Below, piece after piece: positions 56,162 through 60,954 of a stretch of 60,954 nt of DNA; position 1 is the first letter of the stretch, and every line of letters begins with the position of its first letter. Both the position numbers and the translations under genes were made by a program. The notes under the pieces were generated by a model. The model saw nothing but the letters and a program-made list of their open reading frames with translations. It made no database searches and was not told where the DNA came from. The stretch is taken from positions 1-60,954 of the forward strand of contig JAZQIW010000116.1 in NCBI GenBank assembly GCA_045541355.1. The letters run 5' to 3'. This stretch comes from Eubacteriales bacterium (GTDB lineage: Bacteria; Bacillota; Clostridia; Oscillospirales; CAG-382).

Positions 56162-58768
56162 ATGCCCTATACCCCCATGATGCTTCAATATCTTGAAGTA
56201 AAGGAAAAGTATAAAGACGAAATACTCTTCTACCGTCTCGGTGACTTTTACGAGATGTTTTTTGATGATGCAAAAATCGTATCCCGCGAGCTTGAACTGA
56301 CGCTGACGGGAAAGAGCTGCGGCATGGAGGAAAGAGCACCCATGTGCGGTGTTCCTTATCATAGTGCGGAAACGTATATTGCAAGACTTGTCAAAAAAGG
56401 TTATACAGTTGTTGTCTGCGAGCAGGCAGAGGATCCGGCAACGGCAAAGGGGCTTGTAAGACGTGAAGTGTCAAGAATTATAACCCCCGGCACCGTTACC
56501 GAAAGCACCATGCTTCAGGATGGGAAGAATAACTATCTTTGCTCCCTTTATATCTCAGGCTCCGTATGCGGTCTTTGCTTTGCGGATGTTTCGACCGCAA
56601 AGATATTTGTAACTCAGATTACCGACGGTGAAATCAATAAAAGGGTAATAAATGAGCTTGCCACGTATAGCCCGAGTGAGATTATAACAAATGCCGACAG
56701 AGACGGTGTTAAGGAAATATATTCTTATATACGCGAAAGACTCGGCTCTGTTTTCAATGACCGGGCGCAGAATCTGTTTTCATCGGGAGCCTACGGCTAT
56801 GTGTGTGAGCATTTCGGAAAGGATGAGCTTGACAAGGCCTTCCTGAATGAAAACTCTCCCGCAGTGGATGCGGTGGCGGCACTTCTTAAGTATATTGCCG
56901 AGACTCAGAAGGTGGATTTGTCCTATCTCAATAAGCTTGAAAGCTATGATAATAATGCATATCTCGGTATTGATGTAAATACCCGAAGAAATCTTGAGCT
57001 TTGCGAAACAATGAGAAGTCGCGAAAAGAAGGGAACGCTTCTCTGGGTGCTTGATAAAACCAAAACGGCAATGGGTGCAAGACTTCTGCGTAAGTGGATT
57101 GAGATGCCTCTTGTGAGCTGTAATGAAATTCTGCGCAGACAGGGTGCTGTCAAGGAGCTGTATAATAACTATATTGCCAAGGAAGAGCTGCAGCATCTTC
57201 TCGGCGAAATCGGTGACCTTGAAAGGCTTATGACAAGGGTTGTGTATAATACAACAGGCGGCAAGGACATGAAGGCGATTGAGCAGTCGATAAAGGTTAT
57301 ACATCCCATAAAGGAAATACTTTCAAAGCTTGGCAGCGAGGAGCTTTCGCACCTTGATAATAACCTTGATATGCTTTCGGATATTGCACAGTATATACAA
57401 AATGCCATTGATGATGACCCGCCGTTTTCCATAAGAGAGGGCGGATTCATAAAAGAAGGCTTTTCGGCAGAGGCGGATGAGCTGAGGGCGATGATGAATG
57501 ACGGCCACTCGTGGATGGCGAAAATCGAACAGTCCGAAAGAGAGCTTACGGGAATAAAGAACCTCAAGGTCGGCTATAACAGAGTGTTCGGCTACTATAT
57601 TGAGGTTACAAATTCCTTTAAGGACATGGTGCCCGACAGCTATGTCAGAAAGCAGACGCTGACGGGAGCCGAACGCTATATTACCCAAGAGCTCAAGGAA
57701 ATGGAAACCAAGGTGCTGGGAGCAAAGGAAAGACTCGTGGCACTTGAATATGAGCTGTTCCAGCAGCTTCGTGAATATGTTGCGGATAATCTGCAAAGGG
57801 TGCAGAAAACGGCAATTGCTCTGTCTGAGCTTGATGTGTATGTTTCCCTTGCAGACGTTGCAAAAAAGAATAACTATACCTGCCCTGAGGTTGACAGCTC
57901 CGATGTTATAGACCTTGTAGATTCAAGACACCCCGTGGTGGAAAAGTTTATGAAGAACGAAATGTTTGTTCCAAATGACGTGCATTTTGATGAAAACAGG
58001 AGACTTCTTCTCATAACCGGTCCCAACATGGCAGGTAAAAGTACATATATGAGACAGACGGCGCTTATTGTAATTATGGCACAGATGGGCTCATTTGTTC
58101 CTGCAAGAAGCGCGAGAATAGGTATTGTTGATAAGGTGTTTACCCGAATAGGTGCATCGGATGACTTGGCGCAAGGACAGTCAACCTTTATGCTGGAAAT
58201 GTCTGAGTGTGCGTATATTTTAAAGAACGCCACAAAAAGAAGCCTTGTTGTGTACGATGAAATAGGCAGAGGAACCTCAACCTATGACGGCATGAGTATT
58301 GCAAGGGCGATTGTGGAGTATACGGTAAGCAAGAAGCTTTATGCAAAAACCATGTTTGCCACTCATTACCATGAGCTGACGGAACTCGGCGATGTGTGCA
58401 GGGGTGTTGCGAATTTCAATATCGTTGCCAAAAAACGCGGTGATGACCTCATATTTCTCAGAAAGATTGTGGAGGGTGCTGCTGACAGAAGCTACGGTAT
58501 AGAGGTGGCAAAGCTTGCAGGCGTTCCGAAATCCATTGTTGACAGGGCGAATGATATCCTTAGGGAGATTGAAGAAAAGCATAATGTAACTCCCGTAAAG
58601 AGTCAGGTGCCTAAAATGAAGATAACAGAGGATTATAGCTCAACAATGTCTCTTGAAAGCATGGAGCAGGAAAAGGTAATTGATGAGATAAAAAGTATAG
58701 ATATAAATACGCTTACTCCCATAGAAGCCTTGACAAAGCTGTATGAATGGCGTAAAATGTTGGAGTAG
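56162..58768 (+). CDS. mutS: DNA mismatch repair protein MutS
   Basis: TPMMLQY, GDFYEMF, TGPNMAGKST, DEIGRGT, FATHY. Confidence 0.98.
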   Translation: MPYTPMMLQYLEVKEKYKDEILFYRLGDFYEMFFDDAKIVSRELELTLTGKSCGMEERAPMCGVPYHSAETYIARLVKKGYTVVVCEQAEDPATAKGLVRREVSRIITPGTVTESTMLQDGKNNYLCSLYISGSVCGLCFADVSTAKIFVTQITDGEINKRVINELATYSPSEIITNADRDGVKEIYSYIRERLGSVFNDRAQNLFSSGAYGYVCEHFGKDELDKAFLNENSPAVDAVAALLKYIAETQKVDLSYLNKLESYDNNAYLGIDVNTRRNLELCETMRSREKKGTLLWVLDKTKTAMGARLLRKWIEMPLVSCNEILRRQGAVKELYNNYIAKEELQHLLGEIGDLERLMTRVVYNTTGGKDMKAIEQSIKVIHPIKEILSKLGSEELSHLDNNLDMLSDIAQYIQNAIDDDPPFSIREGGFIKEGFSAEADELRAMMNDGHSWMAKIEQSERELTGIKNLKVGYNRVFGYYIEVTNSFKDMVPDSYVRKQTLTGAERYITQELKEMETKVLGAKERLVALEYELFQQLREYVADNLQRVQKTAIALSELDVYVSLADVAKKNNYTCPEVDSSDVIDLVDSRHPVVEKFMKNEMFVPNDVHFDENRRLLLITGPNMAGKSTYMRQTALIVIMAQMGSFVPARSARIGIVDKVFTRIGASDDLAQGQSTFMLEMSECAYILKNATKRSLVVYDEIGRGTSTYDGMSIARAIVEYTVSKKLYAKTMFATHYHELTELGDVCRGVANFNIVAKKRGDDLIFLRKIVEGAADRSYGIEVAKLAGVPKSIVDRANDILREIEEKHNVTPVKSQVPKMKITEDYSSTMSLESMEQEKVIDEIKSIDINTLTPIEALTKLYEWRKMLE

Positions 58769-58811
58769 GTATTTGATAAAATAAGATTTGAGAAAGGGAT
58801 GGTGAATCAGA

Positions 58812-58904
58812 ATGAGTACCGATGGGCGAAGTTGCACGTACAATCATATACATAGCAGACATGACGTATTCTTCTTGATTCGCGCTCCTTTTTTGCGTAG
58901 GTAA
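58812..58904 (+). CDS. Putative 30-aa leader peptide of mgtE (MSTDGRSCTYNHIHSRHDVFFLIRAPFLRR)
   Basis: SD-like AAAGGGATGGTGA ending 6 nt before ATG 58812; TAA at 58902-58904; overlaps the alternative RNA stems. Confidence 0.5.
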   Translation: MSTDGRSCTYNHIHSRHDVFFLIRAPFLRR

Positions 58905-59000
58905 AGAATAATACGTGTATTGTCTGCCGCCGTCATGCCTTTTTCAGGTGACGGCGGTATGCTTTTGTCTTGCAGCCTTACCAAAAAATACAGTAAGGAG
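58855..59000 (+). promoter_or_regulatory. Attenuator-like leader of mgtE
   Basis: Stem 58855-58876/58904-58927; terminator-like GCCGCCGTCA/TGACGGCGGT (58926-58958); alternative CATGACG/CGTCATG pairing; CCTTAC/GTAAGG hairpin over the RBS. Confidence 0.6.
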
Positions 59001-59011
59001 ACGATACGTTT

Positions 59012-60382
59012 ATGAGAGAGAATCTCGAATTGTTCTTTGAACAGATGAACGAGCTTTTTGAAGCGAAAAGCTATAAAAAAATGCGTGAGCTTATAGAGGA
59101 TACACCCGAAGCGGATACGGCAGAGTATATGCAGACTCTTGAAGCTAAAAACGCACTTATTGTTATGAAGATAATGCCAAAAGACCTTGCAGCAGATGTT
59201 TTCAGCTACATTGAATCGGATTTTCAAGAGGAAATCGTGGGACTTGCCTCGGATGAGGAAATCAAAAAGCTCATAGAAGAGCTCAGTACCGATGATGCTG
59301 TTGATATGCTTGAGGAAATGCCGGCAAACCTTGTGCAGAAGGTTCTTCGTAATGCAACTGCAAATACCAGAGCCGAAATCAACAGATTTCTCAACTATCC
59401 CGAGGAAAGCGTCGGGAGTATAATGACCAGCGAATATACAAGCCTTAAGGCAAATATGACCGTAGGCGAGGCGATTGAGTATATCAGAAAGGTTTCGTAC
59501 CATAAGGAAACGGTATATACCTGTTATGTTCTTGGTGCAAGACGTACCCTTGAGGGTGTGCTTGAGCTTTCGGATATTCTCGGCTGCAGAGATGATGAAG
59601 AGCTGGTAGAAAACCTGATGGAAACAAATGTAATAAAGGTTGAAACCCATGATGATAGGGAGGAAGCGGTAAGGCTTACGCAGAAGTATGACCTTTTTTC
59701 ACTTCCCGTTGTTGACAGCGAAAACAGAATTGTCGGAATAGTTACCGTCGATGATGCCATGGATGTCATTGAAGAAGAAGCGACAAGGGATATCGAGCAA
59801 ATGGCGGCGATTGTTCCTACCGAAACGCCTTATCTGAAAACAAGTACACTTTCCCATGTAAAGGCGCGTTTTCCGTGGCTGTTTGTGCTCATGCTTGCAG
59901 GAATGCTAAACGGAGTAATACTTGGTAAATACGAAATGGCAATATCGGCATTACCCTTGCTTGTTACGTTTATGCCGATGCTTACGGGTACAGGCGGTAA
60001 TTCCGGCTCTCAGACAACTGCAACGGTAATCCGCGCAATGACACTTGATGAAATATCCTTGAAGGATTCGTTCAGAGTTATGTGGAAGGAAATAAGGGTA
60101 GCGCTGACAATCGGCGTGATCTTCGGCGTTCTTAATTTTGCAAGGATTTACTTTTTTACAAGTGACCCCGATAGGGTGGGTGTAGGACTTGTCCTCGGAC
60201 TTGCCATGATTTTTACTATTTTTATGGCAAAAACCCTCGGCGCATTCCTGCCTCTGTTGGCAAAAAGCTTAAAGCTTGACCCCGCAGTTGTGGCATCTCC
60301 CATGATTACAACAATAGTTGATGTGGTTTCACTCATGTTCTACTTTAACCTTGCCATAGTAATTCTTGGACATAGAATGTAA
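59012..60382 (+). CDS. mgtE: Magnesium transporter MgtE
   Basis: MgtE_N, two CBS domains (GIVTVDD), RFPWL, GGNSGSQ, DPAVVASPMITTIVD. Confidence 0.96.
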   Translation: MRENLELFFEQMNELFEAKSYKKMRELIEDTPEADTAEYMQTLEAKNALIVMKIMPKDLAADVFSYIESDFQEEIVGLASDEEIKKLIEELSTDDAVDMLEEMPANLVQKVLRNATANTRAEINRFLNYPEESVGSIMTSEYTSLKANMTVGEAIEYIRKVSYHKETVYTCYVLGARRTLEGVLELSDILGCRDDEELVENLMETNVIKVETHDDREEAVRLTQKYDLFSLPVVDSENRIVGIVTVDDAMDVIEEEATRDIEQMAAIVPTETPYLKTSTLSHVKARFPWLFVLMLAGMLNGVILGKYEMAISALPLLVTFMPMLTGTGGNSGSQTTATVIRAMTLDEISLKDSFRVMWKEIRVALTIGVIFGVLNFARIYFFTSDPDRVGVGLVLGLAMIFTIFMAKTLGAFLPLLAKSLKLDPAVVASPMITTIVDVVSLMFYFNLAIVILGHRM

Positions 60383-60392
60383 AATGTATTTT

Positions 60393-60420
60393 GATGCACC
60401 GCCTTTTGGCGGTGCATCTT
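60393..60420 (+). terminator. mgtE terminator-like hairpin
   Basis: GATGCACCGCC-TTTT-GGCGGTGCATC followed by TT. Confidence 0.75.
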
Positions 60421-60445
60421 GCTTCCCTTGCGGGAAGTCTCCGCA

Positions 60446-60954
60446 GGCAATTTCGCGGGTCGAGCCGGCTCGACACCCAACATCGCGGTCACGTTCTGCA
60501 AACCCAAATAACATCCCCCGCGATAGAAAACGTCGCTTGACCGCCATAAATCCAAGCGGTCAACCGATTAAAACCCAATTAGCACAACCCCAAATGGAGG
60601 GAGTTAAGCCCCCACGGGTCGAGACGGCTCGACACCCAACATCGCGGTCACGTTCTGCAAACCCAAATAACATCGCCCGCGATAGAAAACGTCGCTTGAC
60701 CGCCATAAATCCAAGCGGTCAACCGATTAAAACCCAATTAGCACAACCCCAAATGGAGGGTGTTAAGCCACCACGGCGAAAGAGGGAGATTCAGCGGAGC
60801 GTCGGGCGGGGATGCCCCCGCTGGCAATTTCGCGGTCATGTTCTGCAAACTAAAACAACATCGCCCGCGATAGAAAACGTCGCTTGACCGCCATAAATCC
60901 AAGCGGTCAACCGATTAAAACCCAATTAGCACAACCCCAAATGGAGGGTGTTAA
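60446..60954. repeat. Tandem array of 159-bp palindrome-rich non-coding units running off the window end
   Basis: Units start at 60456 and 60615 (period 159); a third partial unit starts at 60830; internal inverted repeats GGGTCGAG/CTCGACACCC, ATCGCGG/CCGCGAT and TTGACCGC/GCGGTCAA. Confidence 0.9.

Follow-up and report, generated by a model that had tools for sequence, protein, structure and literature searches.

What controls the magnesium channel gene mgtE in a clostridial genome whose mgtE leader lacks the expected riboswitch? The control of Mg2+ uptake in Firmicutes is usually credited to the M-box riboswitch, and the question is raised by a 60,954-nt stretch of DNA, hereafter the window, comprising positions 1 to 60,954 of contig JAZQIW010000116.1 (assembly GCA_045541355.1) of a Eubacteriales bacterium from the order Oscillospirales (CAG-382). 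Close to the end of the window, mutS is followed by a 243-nt spacer and then by mgtE. An initial interpretation made from the letters alone, to which we refer as the sequence-only reading, had taken this spacer for a leader-peptide attenuator, in which ribosomes pausing on a short upstream open reading frame (uORF), at a C-terminal RAPF motif, would select the RNA fold. Much of this proposal stood, namely a conserved and apparently translated leader ORF, the lack of an M-box, alternative pairings and a logic resembling that of MgtL, whereas the RAPF site and an alternative pairing between CATGACG and CGTCATG had to be given up. On balance, we favour the view that the mutS-mgtE spacer is an MgtL-like, translation-coupled Mg2+ attenuator ending in an intrinsic-terminator-like hairpin.

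The 30-codon uORF with its Shine-Dalgarno (SD) sequence is present as described, its peptide being identical to the one quoted in the sequence-only reading (Table 1), and it recurs in front of related genes. We collected 110 mgtE loci, of which L001-L030 come from 40 related genomes and L031-L110 from named genome records; L001 is the mgtE locus of the genome studied here, its nearest relatives are metagenome-assembled genomes of uncultured Oscillospiraceae/Clostridia, and the other sampled taxa are Lawsonibacter, Flavonifractor, Faecousia, Ruminococcus, Acutalibacteraceae, and Lachnospiraceae. Three peptide patterns, chosen post hoc, were matched by 63 of the 110 loci, and 61 non-identical leaders were kept, three having been added by hand. 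Most of the sampled mgtE genes are preceded by a uORF with an SD sequence and an ATG or GTG start. The uORF frame is open over 20-48 codons (median 28.5) in all 22 of the first-collected leaders, the medians for the other two frames being 6.5 and 7.5 codons. Besides the SD sequence and the start codon, the conserved features are a peptide start made up of acidic and small residues and, after it, a Gly, Pro or Asp codon followed by CGA and, in most cases, by AGU. The N-termini read MSTDGRS here and MKSHGRG, MDTPGRS, MNDIPGRS, MEGRS..., MD.GSS....[GPD]RS, and MDDASQNTIAPR elsewhere. The other conserved residues vary synonymously (Thr as ACC, ACA, ACG or ACT; Asp as GAT or GAC; Cys as TGT or TGC; His as CAC or CAT) and, when the sequences are laid side by side, the distances from the start codon to CGA differ among leaders by whole codons. 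Conservation of the uORF in related mgtE leaders, which the sequence-only reading had made its first check, thus extends to the SD sequence, the start codon, the open frame, and the N-terminus. A criterion that uses no peptide pattern, but combines an SD sequence, a start codon, a length of 12-70 codons, and a Gly, Pro or Asp codon followed by CGA at codons 4-15, is matched by 59 of 102 unique mgtE upstream regions, by 0 of 102 reverse complements and, in two sets of 102 coding windows, by 1 and 0.

Conservation ends well before the stop codon. The C-terminal half of the leader peptide is not conserved, even within a genus, where MSTDGRS is continued by unrelated tails. This bears directly on the proposed stalling at RAPF (codons 24-27), which had been likened to the arrest at RAPP/RAGP motifs in peptides such as ApdA/ApdP and SecM: the motif is found in no other leader, including those that precede genes for 84-90% identical MgtE proteins, and its codon sequence is explained by the location of these codons in the 3' arm of a helix, P1, described below. 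We therefore consider arrest at RAPF extremely improbable; the conserved determinants are N-terminal, in the [Gly/Pro/Asp]-CGA-AGU region. The same pattern weighs on the idea that the uORF encodes a functional small protein instead of a sensor, for instance a regulator of MgtE comparable to MgtS and MgtR, which are small regulatory proteins of enterobacteria. The uORF is conserved, has a good SD sequence and encodes 20-48 residues; conservation is limited, however, to the first 7-14 of these, and the remainder varies in both sequence and length within a genus, the C-terminal half being constrained by RNA helices instead. The small-protein idea is thus very unlikely, although a conserved uORF peptide follows M-boxes in mycobacteria (passages of PMC12810186). 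The leader peptide of this genome matched no Pfam family at E<=1, and four leader peptides compared with NCBIfam gave no match at E<=10, it being understood that peptides so short score little.

One codon of the uORF is all but invariant. An in-frame CGA occurs within the first 18 codons of 58 of the 61 non-identical uORFs (the exceptions being L019, L026, and L097), at codon 4, 5, 6, 7, 8, 11, 12, 13 or 14 and after a Gly, Pro or Asp codon. Counted over frames 0, 1, and 2 of the uORFs, CGA trinucleotides number 70, 5, and 25, respectively, and CGA makes up 70 of the 135 Arg codons in the uORFs; in the neighbouring mgtE genes it makes up 59 of 1213 (4.9%), and AGU accounts for 153 of 1558 Ser codons there. 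In the long ORFs of the genome under study, CGA, GGG, and AGT account for 4.4%, 4.3%, and 9.6% of the codons for Arg, Gly, and Ser, respectively. The 42 tRNAs detected in the assembly include tRNA-Arg species with the anticodons ACG, CCG, TCT, and CCT, whereas neither tRNA-Arg(UCG) nor tRNA-Gly(CCC) is among them. Given this codon use and the tRNA set found, GGG-CGA-AGU constitutes three rare codons in a row that would be read by wobble. In a his-leader assay described in passages of PMC4046918, decoding takes longer at CGA than at CGU or CGC, and the passages class CGA, CGG, and AGA as low-abundance Arg codons. These are the three Arg codons of mgtL in Escherichia coli K-12 (L141:632-685), the first of which stands in CCT-CGA; the passages of PMC4046918 and the others consulted on MgtL contain no comment on this choice of Arg codons in mgtL. 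As a tentative proposal, which we hold to be possible rather than probable, the Mg2+-sensitive step might be decoding itself, at a CGA read through an inosine-adenosine wobble behind a poor peptidyl donor (Gly, Pro or Asp) and a very short chain of acidic and small residues; the decoding and peptidyl-transfer centres would then serve as the Mg2+ sensor and would govern mgtE, corA, and mgtA, sometimes stacked behind an M-box. A +1 frameshift at GGG-CGA was also considered and was dropped, as the other frames are not conserved.

The RNA of the leader is likewise under constraint. The 262-nt leader folds at -76 kcal/mol, compared with -61.3 +/- 4.9 kcal/mol for shuffled sequences (z = -3.03). Pairings were followed in a subgroup of six sequences, L001-L005 and L142, the last being a single locus from a metagenome pattern scan; helices were tested by duplex energy against shuffles, and it should be noted that the MAFFT alignments of the 5' core are ungapped and that region 3 is misregistered in alignment A4. 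Helix P1, formed by regions 1 and 2, persists in L002-L005 and L142 through compensated changes, attains z values of -3.0 to -4.8 across the six sequences and is also predicted by RNAalifold. Helix H2 (58854-58874 : 58905-58928), formed by regions 2 and 3, shows z values of -4.1 to -9.4 in the six sequences, again with compensated changes, so that the pairing of the 3' half of the uORF with 58904-58927 suggested by the sequence-only reading is real and covaries. The compensated changes in P1 and H2 include GGUGAAUCAG/UUGAUUCGC versus GGUGAG/CUCAC versus GCGUGAG/CUUGCGC and, in a further set, GCAGACA/UGUCUGC versus GCGGA/UCCGC versus GCAGAAAG/CUUUCUGC. Because both helices use the segment ACGUAUU, which corresponds to the ACGTATT(CTT) of the 5' part of region 2 common to the 3' arm of P1 and to H2, they are mutually exclusive. 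Downstream of them, the GC-rich hairpin T2 with its imperfect U-tract, likewise anticipated, folds in all six subgroup sequences at -19.1 to -26.5 kcal/mol; RNAalifold assigns it 14 pairs, 4 of which have changes on both sides, and P1 and T2 together contain 5 such pairs. In the six sequences, the uORF stop codon lies anywhere from within region 3 to 13 nt ahead of it. The subgroup leader therefore has the 1:2 / 2:3 / 3:4 geometry of a trp-style attenuator, with the stop codon at the border of regions 2 and 3. In addition, P1 with the U-run that ends it resembles an intrinsic terminator or a pause hairpin, the first of the leader, and it also hides the SD sequence of the uORF.

Two further pairings of the sequence-only reading fared less well. 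The complementarity between CATGACG (58860-58866) and CGTCATG (58931-58937) exists in this genome but, like RAPF, does not stand out from chance: L002 and L003 have it in weak form or not at all, and it is not conserved. The CCTTAC/GTAAGG hairpin over the ribosome-binding site of mgtE is present, and kept in L006, L008, and L009 and in weaker form in L007, but is absent from the nearest relatives, L002-L005. Across the family as a whole, the arm containing the SD sequence and start codon pairs downstream better than shuffled sequences do (median z = -1.84; 27 of 61 leaders below -2), and about 22 of the 61 leaders have a U-tract at +48 to +95 with a stem partner at approximately -16 to +9 of the uORF start, that is, in the SD/start region. 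Other subgroups are built otherwise: in some, a late U-tract is paired to uORF codons 3-12, and in the Lawsonibacter type the terminator is a separate one at approximately +150 to +228. A likeness of GGGCGAAGU(CGUAAC) in L011 and L012 to a segment of 16S rRNA does not extend to the other leaders and was dropped as coincidence.

This degree of structure invites an explanation at the level of RNA only, by a new riboswitch for Mg2+ or another ligand or by a protein-binding site, with the 'uORF' left untranslated. Conservation of CGA-AGU and of SD-like purine tracts as nucleotides would fit such an element, as would the strong structure of the leader, with the uORF SD sequence and start hidden in P1. 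Several observations nevertheless make it unlikely. The ATG or GTG start retains a correctly spaced SD sequence; the frame is always open, with CGA in frame at nine codon positions; spacing differs by whole codons and variation elsewhere is synonymous, as described above. Furthermore, the N-terminal peptide type is kept in front of corA, where the downstream RNA is different. No complex conserved multi-helix core was found, the conserved helices being the mutually exclusive ones of the expression platform, and the leader matches no Rfam family in a scan of 57500-60954 at E<=10.

For the translation-coupled attenuator, the parts described above suggest the following course of events. The leader ORF would be translated from its own SD sequence, and the early acidic and small residues together with Gly-Arg(CGA)-Ser(AGU) would form a site at which the ribosome is slow or unstable, while three segments compete, region 1 pairing with region 2 in P1, region 2 with region 3 in H2, and region 3 overlapping the base of T2. 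At low Mg2+, the pioneer ribosome would linger or abort near codons 5-7 and prevent P1 from closing on its start-codon side; region 2 would pair with region 3, T2 would lose its base and RNA polymerase would read into mgtE (ON). With ample Mg2+, the ribosome would reach the stop codon at the border of regions 2 and 3 and cover both, H2 would be blocked, T2 would form, and transcription would end (OFF). If no ribosome engaged the leader, P1 would form, hide the uORF SD sequence, sequester region 2, and possibly terminate transcription itself, making OFF the default state.

The association with magnesium rests on the genes served by the element and on its relationship to the M-box. In a sample of 120 genomes from the same order, a uORF conforming to the strict rule precedes 7 of 29 corA loci, versus 1 of 29 and 0 of 29 in controls; these uORFs begin MEPAPSPRS, MNPDPRS, MSGDPRS, MSPEPRS (twice), MSSVPRG, and MVPGRL, those with MEPAPSPRS, MNPDPRS, MSGDPRS, and MSPEPRS, among others, having CCN-CGA-AGT; a looser rule adds MSTDPYRS, MVPDPYRS, and others. 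With regard to the M-box, its absence from the leader, noted by the sequence-only reading, was corroborated by the Rfam scan, and RF00380 was found neither in the genome's own assembly (95.8% complete; control genomes matched) nor in 10 diverse related leaders searched with the covariance model at E<=10; a variant M-box was accordingly rejected, as neither the window nor these 10 leaders yielded a match at that threshold. An M-box is present in 8 of the 80 loci L031-L110 and in 1 of 20 loci scanned from L002-L022, and 5 of the former 8 (L085, L086, L093, L094, and L100) lack a CGA uORF. Among the sampled mgtE loci, the M-box and the uORF are thus mostly alternatives.

Both elements are nonetheless found in tandem, the M-box first and the CGA uORF second, in L017 (M-box 1078-1234, uORF at ~1322, mgtE at 1495), L098 (M-box 323-488, uORF 552-644), and L160, the last coming from a phylum-wide sample; these loci would contain two different Mg2+ sensors in series. 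In L074 and L077, the M-box terminator is followed by a 16-codon ORF with a TTG start (MPDRPKERRS...; Asp-CGA at codons 3-4) located 116-65 nt upstream of mgtE, which may be a degenerate or minimal leader peptide. A riboswitch of another kind, the azaaromatic (yjdF) one, lies downstream of corA at L135:2447-2550 and is unrelated to the uORF.

That Mg2+ is the signal, and that low Mg2+ switches the gene on, we infer from the genes that carry the element, from its relationship to the M-box, and from the mechanism published for MgtL. The same leader-peptide attenuator could in principle answer to something else, such as translation capacity, the supply of arginine or of charged tRNA-Arg(ICG), or ribosome-targeting antibiotics, in the manner of ermC-type or amino-acid attenuators. 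Attenuators classically sense the amino acid of their codons, the sole invariant codon here specifies Arg and is served by a single tRNA, and mgtA also responds to proline limitation. The Pro codons of Salmonella mgtL matter for mgtA control (Gall 2016, as cited in passages of PMC11552253). We regard a signal other than Mg2+ as fairly unlikely, since the regulated genes encode Mg2+ channels of two unrelated families (mgtE and corA), no other gene of this genome carried the element in own-genome scans, the element mostly replaces and sometimes follows an Mg2+ riboswitch, and it contains a single Arg codon, not a run. Collectively, these observations suggest that the recurring leader before mgtE and corA probably senses magnesium through the ribosome, as MgtL does in E. 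coli.

Several results count against the attenuator interpretation. By the strict criterion, 43 of the 102 mgtE leaders lack the element, some of them carrying variants that fall outside the criterion, and in a phylum-wide sample it is matched by 2 of 28 mgtE leaders, one of them convincing; the element is therefore concentrated in the same order and its neighbours. Because of the relatedness among the loci, the counts overstate their independence, and the peptide patterns were picked after the data had been viewed. The peptide of this genome has one acidic residue (D4) and no Pro, and is for that reason a weak match to an EPDP-type motif; relatives start with MD or ME, and the corA versions contain [DE]-P-R. 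As for termination, the U-tail of T2 (UGCUUUUGUCUUG) is imperfect and is weakest in L003, L004, and L142, a simple consensus terminator scan flagged neither T2 nor P1 with its six U, and H2 overlaps just the bottom 3-4 pairs of T2. A further point concerns the CGA codon and the folds: the 28-nt footprint of a ribosome positioned with its A site on CGA pairs with nothing downstream to a significant degree in the L001 and Lawsonibacter-type subgroups (z ~0), and family-wide such pairing falls below -2 in 16 of 58 leaders, nearly all of which have CGA at codons 11-14. In L001, a ribosome so positioned would open the inner part of P1 only, which is the segment needed by H2. Finally, CGA-AGU is fixed as nucleotides, which could mean a role at the RNA level instead of in decoding speed; no such role was found, and in the L001 subgroup CGAAGU has no conserved pairing partner, RNAalifold giving a weak local hairpin.

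Table 1 Features of the mutS-mgtE region in the window (positions refer to the 60,954-nt stretch)
Feature	Position	Strand	Evidence or remark
mutS	56162-58768	+	Pfam-confirmed
Promoter-like site TTGACA-17 nt-TAAAAT	58730-58758	+	within the 3' end of mutS; 11/12 consensus matches
Region 1, 5' arm of P1 (uORF SD, start codon, codons 2-3)	58790-58820	+	duplex with 58865-58895, -30.1 kcal/mol, z = -4.8
uORF SD, GGTGA	58801-58805	+	read from sequence
Leader ORF, 30 codons, peptide MSTDGRSCTYNHIHSRHDVFFLIRAPFLRR	58812-58904	+	ATG at 58812, stop TAA at 58902-58904; SD, start, open frame, and N-terminus conserved across genera
GGG-CGA-AGT (Gly5-Arg6-Ser7)	58824-58832	+	proposed slow/sensing site
Region 2, 5' part; 5' strand of H2, candidate antiterminator	58854-58874	+	duplex with 58905-58928, -19.9 kcal/mol, z = -4.3
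Region 2, 3' part; 3' arm of P1, ending in six U (58889-58894)	58865-58895	+	duplex test, RNAalifold
Region 3; 3' strand of H2, starting right after the uORF stop	58905-58928	+	duplex test; last bases CTGCC form the T2 base
Regions 3:4; GC-rich hairpin T2	58922-58972	+	core 58925-58959 (-23.7 kcal/mol), U-rich tail TGCTTTTGTCTTG at 58960-58972; candidate regulated intrinsic terminator
Hairpin CCTTAC (58976-58981) / GTAAGG (58993-58998)	58976-58998	+	covers part of the mgtE SD AAGGAG (58995-59000)
mgtE, 456 aa	59012-60382	+	MgtE_N PF03448, CBS pair PF00571, MgtE membrane domain PF01769 (Pfam)

Apart from this mgtE, the assembly yielded neither a further MgtE match nor a CorA. The leader transcript would start near 58765 if the promoter-like site at the end of mutS were used, an assignment that is positional only, because the number of such sites in the region (4) is not above that expected from shuffles (4.2). 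Own-genome scans revealed no credible second copy of the leader elsewhere in the genome, with the reservation that one ORF-masking filter was imperfect, since the mgtE uORF was itself masked. The cause was an antisense open frame of 268 aa (58844-59650, minus strand) that spans the leader and the 5' part of mgtE; this frame is very likely spurious but can hide the uORF from automatic intergenic filters, as it did in one of these scans. Directly downstream of the mgtE terminator lies a 159-nt tandem repeat (60456-60776; 2.0 copies, 97% identical), a further similar copy of which continues to the end of the stretch at 60954; by eye, the repeat is non-coding.

If the Mg2+ attenuator favoured here is correct, mgtE and corA appear to be governed by a ribosome-based leader peptide, in place of the M-box or together with it, across a large set of Clostridia from gut and rumen, comprising Oscillospirales and some Lachnospiraceae. 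The MgtL principle would be extended past enterobacteria and mgtA and coupled to an intrinsic-terminator-like hairpin. It would also offer a specific determinant that is cheap to test, namely one synonymous codon (CGA), and with it a possible way to learn how Mg2+ is sensed by ribosomes; the unannotated uORFs could, in addition, enter genome annotation. A search by titles and abstracts, which left subscription-only papers and supplements outside its range, returned no publication that describes an MgtL-like uORF preceding either mgtE or corA in Firmicutes.

Among known systems, attenuators of the trp type combine a leader ORF containing regulatory codons with 1:2, 2:3, and 3:4 pairings and a terminator hairpin followed by a U-tract. 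The clostridial leader resembles them in the placement of its stop codon, such that a finishing ribosome would mask region 2 and the start of region 3, but it relies on one rare codon rather than on a run of codons for the amino acid of a pathway, its region 1 holds the SD sequence and start codon, and its antiterminator overlaps just the base of the terminator. The M-box (RF00380) shares with it the position before mgtE in related genomes and the switching of an intrinsic terminator, whereas the element of the window is shorter, has an ORF as its conserved core and does not match the covariance model. According to passages of PMC12810186, an M-box followed by a conserved, translated uORF, rv1805A, precedes Mg2+-stress genes in Mycobacterium tuberculosis; the order of the two elements parallels that in L017, L098, and L160, although the same passages describe the peptide as specific to mycobacteria and termination as Rho-dependent, and the window has no M-box. 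The 'mgtE motif' riboswitch candidate of Thioalkalivibrio is also located upstream of mgtE and includes the SD sequence and AUG (Narunsky et al. 2024, passages of PMC11109978); by its description there, it is set apart as a multi-stem RNA of one gammaproteobacterial genus, built around the start of the main ORF and not around a uORF.

The closest likeness is to MgtL and CorL. As stated in passages of PMC11552253, efficient translation of mgtL or corL at high Mg2+ represses mgtA or corA, and inefficient elongation at Pro or acidic residues induces them. Passages of bioRxiv 10.1101/2021.02.02.429294 (Chadani et al.) further state that N-terminal chains rich in D, E, and P and in small residues destabilise the ribosome, more so at low Mg2+, that MgtL uses this effect as its Mg2+ sensor, and that Mg2+ counteracts such intrinsic ribosome destabilization (IRD). 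The N-termini of the clostridial family (MD.GSS..., ME.GSS..., M.[DE]P.RS, MSTDGRS) are, judged by sequence, acidic, Pro-containing or small over the first 6-14 codons, the stretch in which sequences prone to IRD abort translation in that work, whereas the invariant CGA lies outside the IRD rule as given in those passages. In common with MgtL and CorL, the clostridial leaders have a short uORF with its own SD sequence in front of an Mg2+ transporter gene, a peptide in which acidic, Pro or small residues abound at the N-terminus, and mutually exclusive leader structures, here P1 and H2 (significant in 6 of 6 sequences), between which translation would select. They differ in serving mgtE and corA of Clostridia rather than enterobacterial mgtA and corA, in having intrinsic-terminator-like hairpins with U-tails where MgtL and CorL act through Rho-dependent termination, in placing the uORF SD sequence and start inside P1, and, for the genome studied here, in a peptide that lacks Pro; no sequence-profile match links the two. 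The likeness to MgtL may reflect homology or convergence. E. coli mgtL reads MEPDPTPLPRRR..., with CCT-CGA, and the clostridial uORFs likewise place CGA after a Pro, Gly or Asp codon.

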